Below are positions 5,440 through 58,950 of a stretch of DNA of 64,000 nt, piece after piece. Source of the stretch: Candidatus Latescibacterota bacterium (GTDB taxonomy: Bacteria; Latescibacterota; UBA2968); NCBI GenBank assembly GCA_965222605.1, contig OZ244960.1:3712001-3776000 (forward strand), read 5' to 3'. Position 1 is the stretch's first letter, and every line of letters starts with the position of its first letter. Below the pieces are notes generated by a model. It had not been told where the DNA came from and ran no database searches. It saw only the letters and a list, made by a program, of their open reading frames with translations. The translations under genes and the position numbers were made by a program.

Positions 5440-6413
5440 TGGAGATAGAGATAGGTTGCTCCTGATACACCTCCCTAAAAAGCGAAAGGTCCCGAGAGAT
5501 CCCAGGACCAACTGCCGACCGGGAACAACCCCCAGTCCAATACCCGAATATAGTCCTTAAGAGCTTATTATGTCAAGAATGTGTTTTTGAAATAGTGCGA
5601 TAAGCAAAACAATTTTTTCTATTATTGACAAGTATTGTGTGATTATCTAAATTGATATTGGATGGTTACAAATAGGAGATATTCCCAACACTCAGAGGTG
5701 CATCATGGTCATTACTTCCAAAGAGATCGGACAACGATTGCGATTTGCACGCGAAAGCCGACATATCACTCAGGAGGCTGCCGGTATAGTGCTTGGCTTA
5801 CAGAGATCTGCGATTAGTCTCATGGAATCCGGCCAACGGCAGGTTTCCACGCTTGAACTGACCCGTCTTGCGGATTTGTACGGACGTTCGGTCGAGTGGT
5901 TTGTCAATCCGGATAGCCCGCTTAAGCAGGAAGATCCGGTGGTCGCGCTTTTTCGCGCAGAGCCAGACTTGCAAAGCGAGGTCGTTCAGGAGCAAGCCCG
6001 ACGTTGTTTGCGTTTGCTCAGAGAAGGCGCGTCGCTTAGACGGCTGACGGGTCGTGGGACAGATGTTTCTCTGCCCAGTTATGATCTTCCGCCCCCTCGG
6101 TCGGTGGGACAGGCGATTGCCCAGGGCCAGCTTGTGGCCGAGCAGGAGCGTCGGCGTCTCGATTTGGGTAATGCGCCTGTTAAGGTGCCCGAGACTCTGG
6201 CTCGTCAGAATATCTGGACAGCTACTTTGCCATTGCCCGATGAAATTTCGGGTCTTTTTTTGAGTAGTCCCGACTTTGGCATGGCGGTGCTGGCTAATTT
6301 AAATCAGGCGCCGGTGCGGCGGCAGTTTTCGTTTGCACACGAACACGGTCACGCGCTTATGGACCGCGATGAGGCGGCTACTGTTACGAGTGCTCATAAT
6401 GCTAAGACGAGGA

Positions 6414-7880
6414 GACGATGTGCCTATCTTAGTTGAAATAGTAGAGGCTCCGATGTAAATTGGATACAGCAGATTCAACCGTGAAAACGCTGTGTCCTCA
6501 ACCAAAGGAGCCCGTGATGAAAAAAGTATCGCACAAAGCCCCCAAAGTCAAGGCCATCCACAAAGACGATGCAACGCCAGAGACACCCCTTGAAGAAGAA
6601 GTGGGCGCACTGGATACACGCATCGCGTTGATCCAGGCCTTGATCCCATTAGGATTAGACGCCGTGGCAGAAGAATTGCAAGAAGAAGTGACCCGCTTGG
6701 CAGGTCACAGATACACACGCAAAGACACCCAAAACCCCAATCGTCGGTGGGGCAGTCAACAAGGGTCTGTGTATCTCTCCGATCAGAAAGTGCCCATACC
6801 TGTTCCCAGGATACGTAATGTGGTGACCGATGAGGAAGTCTCCTTACAGACCTATCATCATCTTCAGCACCCCCGCAGGATGGATGAAGGGCTGCTCCTG
6901 CGTATGATAAAAGGCATTGCCACACGCGCTTATCAAGCCTGTGCTGAGGCGATACCCGAAGCCTTTGGGCTCTCCTCATCTACCGTATCGAGACGCTTTA
7001 TCAAGGCGTCGGCACAAAAGTTGAAACAGTTCAAGGAACGCTCTTTAGCACAGTATGACCTCGTCGCCCTATTTATAGATGGAAAGACCTTTGCGGATCA
7101 GGAGATGATCATTGCCCTTGGCGTAACGATAGAAGGAGACAAAATCCCCCTCGGCTTTGTCCAGGCTGCGACCGAGAACGAGCGTGTCTGCCGACAGTTT
7201 ATACGGTCCCTCCTAAAGCGTGATCTGGTCTATCACAAGGGCCTGCTGTGTCTTATTGACGGCTCAAAAGGCTTGTATGCTGCCCTTACAAAGGCACTTG
7301 ATGGCTATGTGGTCATTCAACGTTGCCAATGGCACAAACGTGAGAATGTCATTTCCTATCTGCCTAAAGGAAAGCAAGATGAGATCAAAAAGACCCTCCA
7401 AAATGCCTACGATCTGCCCACCTACAAAGAAGCTAAAGCTGCTCTTGATGCCCTTAAACCTGAATTGACTTTGATCAACGAAGACGCGACAAAAAGCCTT
7501 GAAGAAGGTCTTGAAGAAACCCTGAGCCTGCATCGCCTAAGACTCATGCCGCAGTTGAAGCAGTCTTTCCGTACCACTAACTGCATTGAGTCCCTCAACT
7601 CTATGGTGGCACAACTCACCAGGGATGGTGTACAACGTGTCGCTTTCCAGACACGTTCATGTGAAGCGATGGACAAACTCGAATCAACGCACACGCTGGT
7701 TAGCCACTGCGCTGTTGGATATTGAACCGCGCTTGCGAAGGGTTAAAGGCTTCCGAAGCCTGCCCAAGCTCAGGCGCGCACTGCAGAAGGACTTGAAACT
7801 CGATACAGACTGGCAAGACGCGCTTGCTGCTGATTGAAACCACCGGCCTCGATTATTTCAACTAAAAATAGCACTTGACC
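6414..7880 (+). mobile_element. IS256-family insertion sequence
   Basis: Imperfect terminal IRs of about 35 bp sharing TTAGTTGAAATA..GAGGC; 9-bp target duplication AGACGAGGA at 6405-6413 and 7881-7889. Confidence 0.92.
6517..7837 (+). pseudogene. IS256 (Mutator-type DDE) transposase, frameshifted near the C-terminus
   Basis: Motifs ALFIDG, LIDGSKGL, QRCQWHK and TTNCIESLNS; a 34-bp insertion at 7624-7657 moves HVKRWTNS... into another frame. Confidence 0.88.
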
Positions 7881-8644
7881 AGACGAGGACGGAACAGCGG
7901 GCAAATGCTTTTGCAGCCACTTTTCTGATGCCCGAAGAGGGTGTGCGGGATTTTCTACATAGTCTGGGCAAGGGAAGAAGTGCCCGGCGCGAGGAAGCGG
8001 CGATGGATGCTGTTACTGGAGAGGGTATTCAGGGCGCGTTGCGCAGTCCGGCGCGTTCGCAGAATATAACCTATGTGGATGTGGCGCTTTTGGCCCGGCA
8101 CTTTGGTGTGAGCTATGCGGCGGCGGTTTGGCGGTTGCGCGGTTTGAATCTCCTGGGTAGTGAACAAACCGAACCGCTTCTCGATCAGACGGAAGAAGCC
8201 AATCGCTATTTGCGCGCTGTGAGGGCTTATGCCAATGTAGAAGATTCCGAAGACGAGGCGCATTTGGACCACGAGTTGGATTGGCAGGTTCTTTGGCTGG
8301 CTCTGGAAGCGTGGTGGCGCGAGGAGATTTCACAGGGACGACTGCTCGAAGTGGGCCGCCTGTTGAATATTGAGGACGAGACGATTCTGGATTTGGCGAA
8401 TTGAGGCTTTCTGAATGCTACATCTGTCTCTCGTATGCGGGCATTTTTTTGCTGGAGCTCTATGCGATTTATTTGGGGGTAACAGCGAAGATGTTTTTGT
8501 ACCGGTTAAGAGTTATTGACGCGGTGCTTGACATAAGGCAAGTTATTCCGTAACAAATAAGGACACTGAACATGACATGCGTGCCGCGTGGGAAGCACTG
8601 TTGTCCTTCTGCACGAAGCGCAATACTGTGAAAGAACTGTGGCT

Positions 8645-8920
8645 ATGATCTATGCGATTGTACCTCTTCAGCGGAGTAACGAAGAAAAACTCCGCCAGAA
8701 AATAGAAGCCTTTAGGACGAGTGGAAGGCATGTCTATACTGACTACGCGCCAATTGCTTACTTTGTGTCTTACAAAGGAACGACGCGCGAACTGGCTGAA
8801 GAGATTGGCTTTAGCGGAGGTGAATCGGGCACTGGTATCGTCATACCGGTCTCGAATTACTATGGTTACGCTGCCAAAGACCTCTGGGAGTGGATGAAGA
8901 TCTATGGATATGACACCTGA
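8645..8920 (+). CDS. Small hypothetical protein (possible ferredoxin-like fold)
   Basis: 91-aa ORF ending NYYGYAAKDLWEWMK; overlaps the next start codon. Confidence 0.6.
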   Translation: MIYAIVPLQRSNEEKLRQKIEAFRTSGRHVYTDYAPIAYFVSYKGTTRELAEEIGFSGGESGTGIVIPVSNYYGYAAKDLWEWMKIYGYDT

Positions 8921-9275
8921 GCGAAACGATAACACAGAAAATAGCGAGGATCGAGAACTCGGATCTCCGACACCATCAGAATCTCCATCTCCACCTCATG
9001 CAGACCTAAATGAGTGGATCATGCAGGGTCTCAATCAGCTCAATGAGCGGTTCAACCGGATTGAAGGCAGGCTTGACGAGATTGGGAAAGATGTAGGCGA
9101 TTTGAAGGAACGAGTCGCTCGGGTCGAAGAAAAGATCACGTCGATACCACAGATTGAAAAAAAATTGTGGAGTCTTCAACGCAATATGTGGGTCGCCACT
9201 GGAATTTTAATCGTTATTGTTTTTTTGGCGCGAATATTTTTACCGGATTTCGACATCACTATCACGCCGAAGTGA
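8904..9275 (+). CDS. Coiled-coil protein with C-terminal TM helix
   Basis: Heptads LNERFNRIEGRLDEIGKDVGDLKERVARVEEK, then TM MWVATGILIVIVFLARIFL. Confidence 0.7.
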   Translation: MDMTPERNDNTENSEDRELGSPTPSESPSPPHADLNEWIMQGLNQLNERFNRIEGRLDEIGKDVGDLKERVARVEEKITSIPQIEKKLWSLQRNMWVATGILIVIVFLARIFLPDFDITITPK

Positions 9276-9319
9276 CCCTTGCCAAACCGCGCACATCTCC
9301 GCATATAGCTACTATACCT

Positions 9320-9352
9320 AACTCCTGATGATTAGTCATTCAGGAGTTTTTT
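9320..9352 (+). terminator. Rho-independent terminator
   Basis: AACTCCTGA...TCAGGAGTT followed by a T-run. Confidence 0.6.
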
Positions 9353-9396
9353 GGTATATTGTACAGTCATTCTGAGCGGAGGACCGGTGGGAGCTT

Positions 9397-9627
9397 ATGG
9401 ACAAGGAAATAAAAATGAACTGCATCCACTGTCATGGGCAAATGAAGCGCTCGAATGCGCCTTTCCACGTTGACCGAAAGGGCTATCATCTGATGTTTGA
9501 CACAGTCCCCGCCTGGGTCTGTGATCAGTGCGGTGAAGCGTATTTCGAAGAGCGCGAAGTCACCGCAATTCAGAGTGCGATTAAGGGGCTGGACCAACAA
9601 GCCCGGCAGCTTGTTGCAGACACTTGA
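9397..9627 (+). CDS. YgiT-type zinc finger (MqsA-like antitoxin domain)
   Basis: CIHC...VPAWVCDQCGEAYF. Confidence 0.85.
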   Translation: MDKEIKMNCIHCHGQMKRSNAPFHVDRKGYHLMFDTVPAWVCDQCGEAYFEEREVTAIQSAIKGLDQQARQLVADT

Positions 9628-9700
9628 GATGCTTAGCGCAGGGTTGCGGCACATGGTTACTGCGCCACTAATAATAGGAATCAGCGAAAGGACGCGTACA

Positions 9701-9946
9701 ATGCCAGAGACAAGGATCGAGTGGGGCATAGATATGGAGACAATATCGAGCAAGTGGGGAATAGGAGACGGAGGAAAAGAAAAAGAGATACGAATCGCGG
9801 GAAGGTGCAAAAGTTGCTGGGGAGGACTCATAGGAAGAAGGAACGAAGCATATGAGTTGACAGGAATCAAATGTCGAGTGTGTGGAACGAAGGTAGAAGG
9901 ACAGGATGCAAAAGAAGAACATGAAAGAATGTCAAATAAAAGAATT
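9701..9946 (+). pseudogene. Zn-ribbon hypothetical protein, interrupted by IS4 and then IS701
   Basis: CKSC...CRVC motifs; the reading frame is cut at the IS4 target duplication. Confidence 0.55.
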
Positions 9947-11142
9947 CAAAGTACACGACAAAAAATAAAAGACCTGTGAAAATTGCTAAAAAGAGTTAGG
10001 TTTGAATGTCCAAAACGAACCTTTCTCATCTCAACAAAGCACAGGTCTATGTCCTCTGAAACTATCGAACTTCAAGAAGTTATGCAAGGATATTTTCCAT
10101 GGCATAAAGCGCGCGTGACATTCATCGCCGCGTTCATTGTGTCTCTGATTAAATTGACCAGCGTCAATTTTACCAAACTGGCAAACGCACTCAATGGAAA
10201 TGTTAAGCAAAAATCCAACTATCGTAGAATCCAACGCTTCTTTGCACACTTTGATTTATCCTATGATTGCCTAACAGGGCTGATCTTGCACTTGTTACCT
10301 GTAAAGTCCGATTTCACCCTCTCAATAGACCGTACCAATTGGAAGTTGGGTAAATTTAATATCAACATCCTGACCGCAGGGATTATCTATCAAGGCGTGG
10401 CATTTCCCATCTGTTGGATGCTGTTATCCAAACGGGGCAATTCTAATACACGGGAGCGCATCCATCTGATGAAACAGGTGCTCCAACGCATCCGTAAATC
10501 CCAAATCCACGTTGTGGTTGCAGATCGGGAATTTATTGGGCAAGAATGGTTTGCGTGGTTAGACACACAAAATATCCCTTTTGCCATCCGCATCAAGGAA
10601 AACGCCATCGTCAAATCAGACAATAAAGAGATACCCCTAAAAAAGCTGTTCGCAAACCTGCAAATACACCAGCAAACGATCTTACGTAAACCCCGTCGCG
10701 TTTATGGGCATTCTCTCTATCTGTCTGCGATACGATTGAAGGATGAATGCCTCATTGTTGCCAGTAAAGCACAAGGCCAGTGGGCATTGGCCGCATACAA
10801 AAAACGCTGGGGCATTGAAGTCTTTTTTGCGAACCTTAAAAGTCGAGGCTTTGATCTGGAAGCGACCCATCTCGTCCACGAAGACCGCATTGAAAAACTC
10901 GTTGCACTTCTGGCCATTGCATGTAGTTGGGCGCATATCGTTGGCGAATGGGTTGCAAAACATCATCCGCTGAAAATTAAAACGCATGGACATCGGGAGA
11001 AGAGCCTCTTTCGATATGGACTTGATTACTTGCAGTATCTTCTCCTGAATATTCAAGCCCATCGGTGTGAGTTTAAATACTGTCTCGCACTCTTAAAAAA
11101 ACTATGACTTCAACCTTTTTTGGCGTTTTGTCGTGTACCATG
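9947..11142 (+). mobile_element. IS4-family insertion sequence
   Basis: IRs CAAAGTACACGACAAAA and TTTTGTCGTGTACCATG; 9-bp TSD AAAAGAATT at 9938-9946 and 11143-11151. Confidence 0.9.
10049..11107 (+). CDS. IS4-family DDE transposase (intact)
   Basis: SIDRTNWK, VADREF and YKKRWGIEVFFANLK (YREK signature). Confidence 0.9.
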   Translation: MSSETIELQEVMQGYFPWHKARVTFIAAFIVSLIKLTSVNFTKLANALNGNVKQKSNYRRIQRFFAHFDLSYDCLTGLILHLLPVKSDFTLSIDRTNWKLGKFNINILTAGIIYQGVAFPICWMLLSKRGNSNTRERIHLMKQVLQRIRKSQIHVVVADREFIGQEWFAWLDTQNIPFAIRIKENAIVKSDNKEIPLKKLFANLQIHQQTILRKPRRVYGHSLYLSAIRLKDECLIVASKAQGQWALAAYKKRWGIEVFFANLKSRGFDLEATHLVHEDRIEKLVALLAIACSWAHIVGEWVAKHHPLKIKTHGHREKSLFRYGLDYLQYLLLNIQAHRCEFKYCLALLKKL

Positions 11143-11167
11143 AAAAGAATTACAAATTTAATGAATT

Positions 11168-12303
11168 AGGACTTACGCAAGCACCATGTGAATAGTAGGC
11201 GCTTTGAGTTGTTGTTTCAAATAATCAGCTAACAAGCCGTATTTGACCTGATAAACGGATTGTCGTGTTTGATAGGCGACCTGTGCAAATCGCACCCAAA
11301 CGAGGAAGGCACATCCGATGTGATTGCGAACAATGCGTGGCAATCGACATTGACACTTTTCAAGACCCGTCACTTGTTTTGCTTCTCGGTGAAATTGCTC
11401 AATTTTCCAACGCCAGTGACACGCCTGTTGTGCCACTTGGGTATCGTTTTGGGCCTGGTCGTTAGTCACGACATATTCCGTGCGTCTGGTAGAAGACATC
11501 ACCCGAAATAATTTCACTTTATGGTCTCTTGGAAAGCCTCTGATTTTAATGCGTTTGCCAGCTTTTGTCTCGCTGACCGTCCAATCTAAGCGGTCTATGC
11601 GTTGATAGGGTTTAGCACCTGAAGAATCATCCACACGCCGATTCGATTTGAGAGGGCAGTAATAGGTTTTTTGCAGTTTCTCAATGTGTAGCATGACCGT
11701 CCTGGTGGCATACCAGCTATCCATTAACACGGTCTGAAAAGGCAGTTTTCTGGCATAGACCAAGACAGATAACATCTCCTGTAGATGATCTAACTTGGTT
11801 TTGCCATCCCCCTCAGGGTCATAAATGCGATAGTCAATGAAAAAGAACCGATCCTGATCGGGATGAACTGCTGGCGCAGTTGTACCCCGTTCGACATAAA
11901 CGCAAGTGACGACCCCGATGCCGTTGATGACCCCTTTGGCATTGCCGCTATATTGACGCCGCACCAACGCAATCTTGTGGGCATGACGCTTGTCCAGCAC
12001 TGTGTCATCGAAGATCACATAGCCCTTTGGGGTCACTTGAATGTGGTCTTTGACGTGTTCCCACACCAGGCGAGGCGGGATGCGATCACCGGATAGGTAA
12101 CGGTTGATCATATCATGACTGAACCTTTGGCTGTGGTCTGCGAAATGGGTCAGCGTATAGTTGATTGGACTGCTCAGCAAATACTGACAGTAATCCAAGC
12201 GGGTTGGTTTATCCATCCTCACCTCCTCGGTGCTCAGGTTAGGCTCCAATCCCGTCAATTTAAAGATTGGAAAACCTTGGGGCTATTGTTTTGCGTAAGT
12301 CCT
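11168..12303 (-). mobile_element. IS701-family insertion sequence
   Basis: Perfect IRs TAGGACTTACGCAA (11167-11180) and TTGCGTAAGTCCTA (12291-12304); exact ends uncertain by 1-2 bp. Confidence 0.85.
11173..12216 (-). CDS. IS701-family transposase with a 9-aa in-frame insertion
   Basis: IFDDTVLDK, VLMDSWY and RWKIEQFHRE; extra ERGTTAPAV between CVYV and HPD. Confidence 0.85.
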   Translation of the reverse strand: MDKPTRLDYCQYLLSSPINYTLTHFADHSQRFSHDMINRYLSGDRIPPRLVWEHVKDHIQVTPKGYVIFDDTVLDKRHAHKIALVRRQYSGNAKGVINGIGVVTCVYVERGTTAPAVHPDQDRFFFIDYRIYDPEGDGKTKLDHLQEMLSVLVYARKLPFQTVLMDSWYATRTVMLHIEKLQKTYYCPLKSNRRVDDSSGAKPYQRIDRLDWTVSETKAGKRIKIRGFPRDHKVKLFRVMSSTRRTEYVVTNDQAQNDTQVAQQACHWRWKIEQFHREAKQVTGLEKCQCRLPRIVRNHIGCAFLVWVRFAQVAYQTRQSVYQVKYGLLADYLKQQLKAPTIHMVLA

Positions 12304-12493
12304 AAAATATTAAAATAGAGGGAAGGGAGTGCCCTCCAAAGAACGTATAATGAACACAGATAACAGAAGCAAAAACAACAGAGTAAGAGCCAGATACAAA
12401 ACTCTACACTATCTTGCGAGTGGTGTGTTCTATTCAGGCATCTTGAATACGTTTGTCTATTGCTCTACTCTCTGTCCTACAAGGAGAACTTCA

Positions 12494-12763
12494 ATGGAAA
12501 TTTACGAACTTGTCCTTGAAATGAAGCGGCTTGAACGGCGGCTCACGCTCTATGAAGAAAAATACGGGATTCTTAGCCAGGATTTTTACGATATTTTAAT
12601 GGCGGGAAAACTATCGCGCTACGACGATTTTGATGAGACACGAACGGATTTCAGTCGGTGGAAAGGCATTTACGAAACCTGGCAACGCCGCAAGACGGCC
12701 TATAACGAACAAATCCAACAAAGCGATCCGGCAGACGTATTGCGTGTACAACCCGCTTATTGA
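12494..12763 (+). CDS. Putative antitoxin (TumA-like)
   Basis: AGGAG SD; LERRLTLYEEKYGILSQDFY...DFSRW pattern typical of small antitoxins paired with DUF6516/TumE toxins. Confidence 0.55.
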   Translation: MEIYELVLEMKRLERRLTLYEEKYGILSQDFYDILMAGKLSRYDDFDETRTDFSRWKGIYETWQRRKTAYNEQIQQSDPADVLRVQPAY

Positions 12764-21932: not shown

Positions 21933-23483
<1,551 letters not shown>

Positions 23484-23599
23484 GGGAGACGCGATGTAAG
23501 GCCATAGGCGCTTACATCTACTCCTAAGGTCAATGCCAGGCTTGGCATGTGCACGTTATTTGGTTTTTAAAAGCCGGGATTTTTCCCGGCTTTTTAGGC

Positions 23600-23676
23600 G
23601 GGCCTATAGCTCAGTTGGTTAGAGCGCGCGCCTGATAAGCGCGAGGTCAGTGGTTCAACTCCACTTAGGCCCACCA
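23600..23676 (+). tRNA. tRNA-Ile (GAU)
   Basis: GGGCCTATAGCTCAG...CT-GAT-AA...CCCACCA in the ITS. Confidence 0.97.
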
Positions 23677-23691
23677 AATTATAAAATATTC

Positions 23692-23767
23692 GGGGATATA
23701 GCTCAGATGGGAGAGCGCCGGCTTTGCAAGCCGGAGGTCACCGGTTCGATCCCGGTTATCTCCACCA
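23692..23767 (+). tRNA. tRNA-Ala (UGC)
   Basis: GGGGATATAGCTCAG...TT-TGC-AA...CTCCACCA with the G3:U70 pair. Confidence 0.97.
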
Positions 23768-23896
23768 AAGATGTAACTTTTATAGAATTTTCAACTGCTC
23801 TTTGACAATTGAATATGGATTGGGTAATACAATTTGCCAAACTGAAGTATGGATTCTTTTGCAGAGCACAGTAGTGATCTGCTGAAAACCTGTTTT

Positions 23897-26925
<3,029 letters not shown>

Positions 26926-26996
26926 TTTTTAAACTTTTTTCAGCAGATCGCTTCTGTGCTTTGTTTTGGCGCTCAATCCATATTCATTTAAATTTT

Positions 26997-27114
<118 letters not shown>

Positions 27115-58668: not shown

Positions 58669-58676
58669 TTGCCTTC

Positions 58677-58950
58677 AAAGCTATGAAGGAGAAAAGTAGC
58701 CTGTTTCCAACTGCACAGAGAGGATGTGTCCTGGGCTGAAAGCACATCTGCAGGATGCACAGGTGAAGTTCCCTCCCGAGCTGCAAAGCCGAATGGAAAG
58801 ACAGTTTCTTAGTAAGCCGAGCCGGTGGGTCCGCCGACAATGGACAGGATGGTGACAGCCATCTACTGAGTGGTGCTTTTAAGCGCAAATAGGGTGGTAC
58901 CGCGGAAAGCTCTTTCGTCCCTATGATGACGAAGGGGCTTTTTGTTTTTT
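58677..58950 (+). ncRNA. T-box riboswitch (Phe specifier)
   Basis: AGTA, AGAGA and GCTGAA motifs; GAAG-TTC specifier (58769-58771); T-box AATAGGGTGGTACCGCG (58888-58904); terminator hairpin with T-run. Confidence 0.88.

Follow-up and report, generated by a model that had tools for sequence, protein, structure and literature searches.

Insertion sequences (ISs) of the IS200/IS605 type depend on the Y1 transposase TnpA, have two subterminal hairpins and hairpin-defined ends, insert at a short specific target without duplicating it, and show a lagging-strand bias. The attC sites of integrons are imperfect palindromes of ~57-141 bp with R and L boxes, found in cassette arrays beside an integron integrase. 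Tagged repetitive extragenic palindromic (REP) sequences of the GTAG and CGTC super-families (Di Nocera et al. 2013) are described, in the sections of PMC3733652 drawn on here, as 20-40-bp palindromes with an unpaired tag that are mostly extragenic, with some in open reading frames (ORFs) and some within small target palindromes; in those sections, CGTC-class REPs have no dedicated transposase. The small dispersed repeats (SDRs) of Nostocaceae are called "very small mobile repeated elements" (Elhai et al. 2008, as cited in portions of PMC3116915, PMC2884548 and PMC5861425), and SDR5 reportedly uses HIP1 as an insertion site (a portion of PMC5861425). Here we analyzed a window of 64,000 nucleotides (64 kb; contig OZ244960.1, genome positions 3712001-3776000) from the single-contig, 6.34-Mb genome of a Candidatus Latescibacterota bacterium (G000; genomes of relatives carry other G numbers), in which two transposase genes each carry a hairpin insert: E1 in an IS256-like gene and E2 in a DDE_5/IS701-like gene. 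Both probably belong to a family of REP-like mobile hairpins that is found throughout the genus; its members are very small (24-46 nt) and non-autonomous, and would be moved in trans as folded single-stranded DNA.

The hairpins represent a new family within a known kind of element, closest to tagged REPs. With tagged REPs and REP-RAYT systems (RAYT, REP-associated tyrosine transposase), as presented in the portions of PMC3733652 and PMC3116915 used here, they share a short palindrome with a conserved unpaired end motif, and also a high and variable copy number, a mostly intergenic placement, some copies in ORFs and some in palindromic targets. They differ in the tag, which is GGKGTAC after GRRY and not GTAG or CGTC (the string GTAC is absent from PMC3733652), and in the host, an uncultured genus of Latescibacterota. 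Unlike REPINs, they form no regular inverted doublets at fixed spacing in the G000 list, where copies close together point the same way or lie one within another, and unlike in REPtrons, the Y1 genes are not flanked by hairpin copies. SDRs, as far as the cited portions describe them, resemble the hairpins in their length of a few tens of nucleotides, mobile behaviour, insertion into repeats or palindromes and a mobiliser that is not known; compared by description only, they belong to an unrelated lineage and apparently differ in sequence, whereas the present family is defined by a covarying hairpin whose tag is fixed. Rickettsia palindromic elements (RPEs) are also palindromic and lie in frame inside functional genes, but in the part of PMC10969869 used here they measure ~150 bp and encode a conserved peptide, whereas the hairpins are 24-46 nt long and in-gene copies are a small minority. 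[quoted passage not shown] The likeness to IS200/IS605 is a mechanistic analogy only, resting on ends set by a hairpin and not by terminal inverted repeats, insertion without target duplication, and a short, specific target beside one end; the present elements differ in that they have one hairpin only, do not encode TnpA, show no bias by replication strand and are untidy at the 5' junction. With attC sites they have only the AAC/GTT triplets in common, being short and dispersed, and the integron integrase model TIGR02249 gave nothing above the cut-off in G000 (best 88 bits vs 265). Literature searches (main texts) on small mobile or dispersed repeats, in-frame palindromic elements and Latescibacteria sponge symbionts brought up no description of the family; in a paper on sponge Latescibacterota (PMC12993501), CRISPR repeats are the only palindromic repeats mentioned.

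We refer to a site with a hairpin as filled and to a homologous site without one as empty. Comparison with empty paralogues shows that E1 and E2 are true inserts and not native sequence. In the IS256-like IS, the same 34 nt are present in four G000 copies and absent exactly from four paralogues that are 81-88% identical (three full length, one partial); in the DDE_5-like IS, 27 nt are present in two G000 copies and absent from two paralogues that are ~75% identical. E1 (window 7623..7659, plus strand) consists of a 5' GGAT, the head GGTGTAC, an 8-bp stem (AACGTGTC/GACACGTT, including AAC/GTT), an 8-nt loop (GCTTTCCA) and a final CA, and its core at 7627-7659 reads GGTGTACAAC, followed by the stem and loop, and ends in GTTCA; the exact limits of E1 can be placed only to within 1-3 nt, as target and element ends are alike rich in purines. 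E2 (11864..11892, minus strand) has a 5' GAAC, the head GGGGTAC, a 6-bp stem (AACTGC/GCAGTT), a 4-nt loop (GCCA) and a final CA, and its core at 11864-11888 reads GGGGTACAAC, followed by the stem and loop, and likewise ends in GTTCA. Folded as single-stranded DNA, E1 has an energy of -7.2 kcal/mol (z = -2.75) and E2 of -5.2 kcal/mol (z = -2.36). Both inserts are sense relative to the host gene. The two same-orientation inserts in transposase genes reported by the first-pass annotation lie where it placed them.

The filled IS256-family copy spans 6413..7880 on the plus strand, as blastn aligned four filled and three to four empty genome copies over ~6413-7880; contigs of sequencing runs X16 and X1 diverge at 7880-7882. 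The N-terminal part of its transposase (6460..7622, ~388 codons, plus strand) matches Pfam Transposase_mut PF00872 (E 6.6e-34), and the net gain of 34 nt causes a frameshift, beyond which the reading frame stays open in the +1 frame as a C-terminal part of 58 codons (7661..7837, plus strand; VKRWTNSNQR...AAD, then stop), as the first-pass annotation had implied. The second filled IS (11167..12314, minus strand) was delimited from genome copies and Pfam matches and is of the DDE_5/DDE_Tnp_1 (IS701/IS4-like) type; the label "IS701" for its gene is taken solely from Pfam DDE_5/DDE_Tnp_1. Its transposase ORF (11173..12258, minus strand; 361 aa, identified from the ORF, Pfam and paralogues) is intact, the net gain of 27 nt being in frame and adding nine residues. 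The head motif GGNGTACAAC occurs three times in the window against 0.25 expected, and three or more occurrences were seen in 0/100 shuffles, so that chance is an improbable explanation. The third match, at window 46063, lies within a gene, has no hairpin and was set aside as a chance match. The genome-wide list contains no hairpin copies in the 64-kb window other than E1 and E2, in keeping with the earlier remark that other genes there lack such inserts. A third transposase gene, also free of hairpins (9983-11107, plus strand; DDE_Tnp_1, 374 aa), lies between the two filled ISs.

The two inserts belong to a much larger set. The first-pass annotation had described a shared architecture with fixed ends and covarying stems and had suggested a genome-wide pattern search; this architecture was seen family-wide in G000 and its relatives, with the form 5'-GRRY-GGKGTAC-AAC, a covarying stem with a G..A-closed loop, and GTT-C(A). 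In G000, scans returned 108 head motifs, and a more permissive pattern yielded 110 candidates. Eighty-one of these were retained, and the removal of five more left a family of ~76 copies of 24-46 nt with conserved ends. The five removed candidates, in long ORFs at genome 1019713, 2423711, 2944216, 3321688 and 6153849, were probable chance matches. By core length, the copies fall into subfamilies of 24/25, 28, 33 and 46 nt that differ in stem and loop, while GGKGTAC at the head, the closing pairs AAC/GTT and CA at the end are constant throughout.

Stem pairing is maintained despite sequence change. Among 20 distinct 33-nt cores, picked regardless of pairing, all five free stem positions are paired in 15 (mean 4.0 and maximum 9 over 1000 column shuffles), pairs 1, 3 and 4 show compensatory changes, and the loop starts with G and ends with A in 15. 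Within 143 non-redundant copies from several genomes, 235/250 stem cells of the 33-nt class hold Watson-Crick pairs, and the mismatches comprise 7 A-C, 3 G-T and 5 others; G-T is thus not in excess over A-C, and there is therefore no sign of selection on a one-strand RNA. The covariance models of Rfam 15 gave no match in window 7000-12600 at E up to 1. Some copies are altered in other ways. At genome 6101629-6101798 in G000, an unrelated repeat of ~110 nt lies within a hairpin head, between GG and TGTACAAC, and the same head-interrupting repeat is found at 3341150, 4319139 and 4861280, giving four to five such arrangements. A degenerate copy with the tail ATTCA (genome 3055920-3055952, minus strand) lies in the apparent C-terminal region of another IS256-like gene, at a site that no paralogue spans.

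The family is genus-wide in sponge-associated Latescibacterota and essentially absent outside the genus. The pattern GGKGTACAACN{9,18}GTTCA was matched in 20/20 genomes of the genus, with 14-278 matches each, in 0/4 genomes from other genera of the family, and by a single match in 5/16 genomes of the sister family, while a reversed-pattern control gave 0 matches in all genomes. Copy-rich genomes include G010 (278 copies), G018 (264), G016 (171) and G014 (143). A search of one genome per species across 185,579 species found at least 111 stretches; among the 80 loci listed, 77 lie in metagenome-assembled genomes of Latescibacterota/Latescibacteria, and the remaining three are single matches outside Latescibacterota. 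The runs that hold the IS256-like IS include sponge metatranscriptomes.

That the hairpin family is mobile is shown by sites filled in one genome or paralogue and empty in another, by the nesting of copies and by separate events at a single terminator loop. The comparison of filled and empty alleles proposed by the first-pass annotation yielded both paralogous and orthologous pairs, for example in the IS256-like and IS701-like ISs, thiE and tilS. Among paralogues, a DDE_Tnp_1_3 IS has one filled copy against five near-identical empty ones, and a tyrosine-recombinase fragment one filled against two empty. Among orthologues, thiE carries a 27-nt in-frame copy in G000 and G019 that is absent from 17 other aligned relatives (G010 gave no match and a partial G012 contig was excluded). 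In tilS, a 27-nt in-frame copy inserted into a 5-bp palindrome with an A-rich loop is present in 16 genomes (G000 and 15 relatives) and absent in G008, G001, G016 and G018, with only a partial alignment for G010; the tilS hairpin has decayed in several species. Several relatives are also filled at sites where G000 is empty.

An orthologous intergenic locus (genome 5859501-5859800), compared with 11 relatives, records four separate events. G019 and G017 are empty there, whereas G000, G004, G014 and G007 have a copy inside a small A-tract hairpin, and in G007 a second, inverted copy lies inside the loop of the first. At the same locus, G014 and G020 carry different subfamilies at the same position and in the same orientation, in the loop of a neighbouring terminator. 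G000 itself has nested copies: that at 4034038 lies inside the one at 4034021, and that at 4279300 inside the one at 4279282. The exact empty form of the outer loop for 4034038 occurs in G015.

A larger dispersed repeat, which we call the carrier repeat, is a recurrent target of the hairpin. It includes CATTCTGAGCGGAGCG, then GTCGAAG and AATCT, between which the site lies, and AAGATGCTTC. In G000 it is empty at 249111-249177, 2199463-2199529, 2890458-2890534, 3658682-3658748, 5177884-5177949 and 1615989-1616037, and filled at 3805259 and 4211265. The carrier repeat has multiplied in G014 while bearing a composite, copy-in-copy element. There are 20 such composites in G014 (L250-L269), of which L251 was missed by the pattern, and 18 of the 19 retrieved share one carrier flank. 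This apparent burst was considered as proof that the loop can hold cargo and was set aside, as the composites represent only ~3 different contexts.

Twelve filled/empty junctions could be compared at the base level. Direct repeats longer than 1 nt were found at none of these 12 junctions, which agrees with the earlier suggestion of insertion without target duplication. The net gain equals the core plus 2 nt in seven 24/25-nt cases: from 25 to 27 nt in the IS701-like gene, thiE, tilS, G019 locus L132, the tyrosine-recombinase fragment and the carrier repeat, and from 24 to 26 nt in the DDE_Tnp_1_3 IS. It equals the core plus 1 nt in four 28/33-nt cases (33 to 34 nt in the IS256-like IS, nested copy 4034038 and the composite copies; 28 to 29 nt in nested copy 4279300) and in one 25-nt case (25 to 26 nt in the G014 terminator loop). 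The 3' junction is constant, while the 5' junction varies by 1-2 nt and includes bases absent from the target. A single rule, in which RY plus the core is placed between GA and A, fits most lengths but was rejected: at least four cases would call for a changed purine at -4/-3. Given these changes, the true 5' end of the element is uncertain by 2-3 nt. GRRY complements the 3' GTTC if G-T pairs are allowed, which would permit pairing of the two ends.

The flanks of 143 copies show G, G/A, A, G/A and C at positions -5 to -1, and at +1 T is commoner than A or C and G almost never occurs; beyond these flanks, conservation is nil. Empty sites read G-R-A and then A; the insertion consensus is G-R-A before and A-T/C/A after the insertion point. 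Hairpin loops, whether of a terminator, a small palindrome or another copy, are favoured as targets in a minority of cases. A perfect stem of at least 6 bp encloses the site in 15/143 copies (10.5%) vs 1.8% of 20,000 motif-matched controls, which were drawn from all DNA, while terminators abound in intergenic DNA. Many copies stand beside intergenic hairpins whose arms are built of tandem 7-10-mers, with reverse-complement units on the opposite arm. Examples of the units are (GAAGTGT)n, (AATAGACG)n and (CGCAGATGRR)n, and the number of units varies between species. One such hairpin lies at genome 5877201-5877620 in G000 (relatives: L060-L068), and a 182-nt block in G000 is absent from most relatives.

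The first-pass annotation had proposed an element that parasitises or silences ISs and had suggested testing for enrichment in ISs over other genes. Most G000 copies are intergenic or just upstream of gene starts, and thiE and tilS are also hit. Multi-copy repeats (at least 600 nt, at least 85% identity) make up 6.07% of G000 and hold 9/76 copies, representing ~4 insertion events among ~70 independent loci, so ISs are targeted no more than by chance. The hairpin family does not appear to be a system aimed at transposases, and IS silencing is unlikely. The pattern in the window may instead reflect relaxed selection: insertions within genes would normally be purged but could persist in IS genes, which are not under such selection, so that in a host gene only harmless in-frame copies would be retained, whereas an IS could bear a frameshift. 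A 27-nt copy in the IS701-like gene, thiE or tilS would merely add nine residues.

On the reading that we favour, that of REP-like hairpins moved in trans, the element would be recognised as a folded single DNA strand by a structure-specific enzyme encoded elsewhere, which would cut and join beside the foot of the hairpin. Insertion is precise, at purine-rich sites of the consensus given above, with a target duplication of at most 1 nt. The single-strand, structure-specific mechanism is suggested by stems that covary, a tag that is fixed and unpaired, and insertion that does not duplicate the target. The earlier proposal of a non-autonomous micro-element, a hairpin whose ends are fixed and whose stem covaries, is borne out by the family of ~76 copies in G000, which together with the empty paralogues argues against isolated or native sequence. 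An excision footprint, which it had offered as an alternative, is unlikely, as stems and loops differ yet still pair and copies nest in each other.

Several observations weigh against our reading. That the mechanism is single-stranded and acts in trans we infer by analogy, and the enzyme that moves the hairpins was not found among the families tested. The window holds no mobilising gene, as had been remarked. In G000, GIY-YIG gave three matches (proteins of 608, 481 and 143 aa), none near a copy; Y2_Tnp PF04986 gave no match, but its control was likewise matchless in every genome. A search of G000 for a longer element with the same ends, as had been envisaged (head plus 4 stem bases, matching tail, up to 6 kb), returned 18 pairs, all of them chance pairs or neighbouring copies. 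Copies are split 41 vs 35 between the replication strands (skew minimum at ~3.05 Mb), showing no bias. Copy number derives partly from larger carrier repeats that bear the hairpin, as in the 18/19 G014 composites. At the target, the enclosing-stem excess was measured against the all-DNA controls mentioned above, and minimum-free-energy folds of 60 nt gave no enrichment of hairpin targets (15/73 vs 378/2000). The -4 base is G in filled alleles and A in all empty paralogues (DDE_Tnp_1_3 5/5, carrier repeat 6/6, IS701-like 2/2, IS256 4/4), so the element seems to replace 2-3 target purines, beginning with GRRY, a feature not predicted by simple cut-and-paste. Finally, we infer that the filled IS256 copies were themselves mobilised in trans. 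In the empty paralogues e4127 and e2087 both ORF parts are free of stops, and all IS256 copies have the same IS ends; movement by intact paralogous transposases would therefore be the simplest way to account for the frameshifted copies, one of which (filled copy c1451) already has a stop codon.

The hairpins could instead be classical REPs moved by a genome-encoded RAYT or IS200-type Y1 HUH transposase, and the first-pass annotation had pointed to HUH enzymes. In its favour, the hairpins have the architecture of tagged REPs as set out in portions of PMC3733652: a palindrome of 20-40 nt with a conserved unpaired tag, placed mainly outside genes and inserted without duplicating the target. G000 encodes one IS200-like and two RAYT-like Y1 genes, the latter in apparent type I restriction-modification clusters, a RAYT-like gene in G011 has a hairpin copy 34 nt downstream, and a preprint (10.1101/279083), in the part used here, makes the case that genes of this kind can disappear following a burst. 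We nevertheless regard it as unlikely, as Y1/RAYT genes do not track the element. PF01797 was matched in only 12/20 genomes of the genus and in none of the copy-rich G010, G016 and G014, and a RAYT-like protein is encoded in 8/20 genus genomes vs 14/16 genomes of the element-free sister family. A copy lies nearby (~1.5 kb) at only 1/12 RAYT-like and 1/32 PF01797 loci scanned (L001-L003, L016-L044), the same G011 locus in both counts. No hairpin copy flanks any of the three Y1 genes of G000; the hairpins that do adjoin the IS200-like tnpA were considered and are unrelated to the element. The tag is other than GTAG, and the replication strands show no bias. The two RAYT-like genes of G000 (genome 5722921-5723460, L002, and 3942129-3942623, L003; 180 and 185 aa) are not flanked by repeats. 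Copying via RNA by a reverse transcriptase with target-primed insertion would account for 3' junctions that are precise and 5' junctions that are fuzzy, and the 5' junction does vary by 1-2 nt with non-target bases; it is very improbable, as RVT_1 (PF00078) has no match in G000 or in the copy-rich G018 and matches in only 9/20 genus genomes, and the stem mismatches show no G-T vs A-C asymmetry between strands. As none of Y1/RAYT, reverse transcriptase, integron integrase or GIY-YIG tracks the element, the mobiliser may tentatively be placed in a kind not yet linked to REP-like repeats, one for which pairing of GTTC with GRRY might set the ends and 2-3 purines would be replaced; we hold this more specific proposal with low confidence.

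Another possibility is a host-useful motif, such as a protein-binding site or an mRNA-end/terminator module, spread by gene conversion between similar intergenic repeats and not by transposition. Many copies do have similar flanks (tandem 7-10-mers, the A-tract hairpin, the carrier repeat), the -4/-3 flank bases appear co-converted, IS copies recombine and the family is conserved genus-wide. This seems improbable given insertions in unique coding sequences without flank similarity (thiE, tilS, three unrelated transposases), different subfamilies at the same site, a 20-fold copy-number range between species and hairpin decay in tilS. Alternatively, the IS256 insert could be removed or skipped at expression, as a mini-intron or by translational bypass, and the family would be a recoding element, an option that the first-pass annotation had also raised. 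The four frameshifted IS256 copies form two sublineages that are 93.7% identical, with an insert that is 100% conserved, and between the filled lineages the C-terminal +1 frame shows 6 synonymous vs 2 non-synonymous changes, against 0-1 vs 7-8 in other frames. This synonymous bias need not post-date the insertion, because the IS copies are mosaic: over the 240 nt downstream, the filled copies c2042 and c310 match the empty e4127 in full, while over the 320 nt upstream they are only 85% identical. In the three copies concerned (genome 2042520, 310739 and 4127218), identity switches from 85% to 100% exactly at the insert position. Intact paralogues with the same ends could act in trans and would suffice. 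Metatranscriptome contigs X6, X16 and X18 cover the IS256-like IS, but none spans 7614-7658; joined forms (7616 to 7659 with 8 letters between, and 7622 to 7659 with AA between) come from run X1, which is not recorded as RNA, and match empty paralogues, and a loose end of X16 at 7622 resembles paralogue p2603. Copies are mostly intergenic, genes that must work (thiE, tilS) hold only in-frame 27-nt copies, the tilS hairpin decays over time, the stems have 3 G-T vs 7 A-C mismatches and no Rfam family matches, so that we see no sign of splicing or recoding and find it scarcely credible.

Elsewhere in the window, Rfam matches at the gathering score mark a complete rRNA operon (21934-27114; 16S, two tRNAs, 23S, 5S) and a T-box leader (58674-58925).

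How tiny palindromic repeats without a dedicated transposase spread, as in CGTC-type REPs and cyanobacterial SDRs, is an old question. The present family offers unusually clean study material for it, with a fixed tag, a covarying stem, a dozen base-level junctions, independent hits at the same site and a 20-fold range in copy number among close relatives with mostly complete genomes. For annotation, the element frameshifts or lengthens genes (IS256-like, IS701-like, thiE, tilS) and inflates intergenic diversity in sponge-symbiont Latescibacterota. If the mobiliser does belong to a kind not yet linked to REP-like repeats, this genus, with ~20 near-complete genomes, 14-278 copies in each and species-specific insertions, could reveal how transposase-less REP-like repeats are mobilised.

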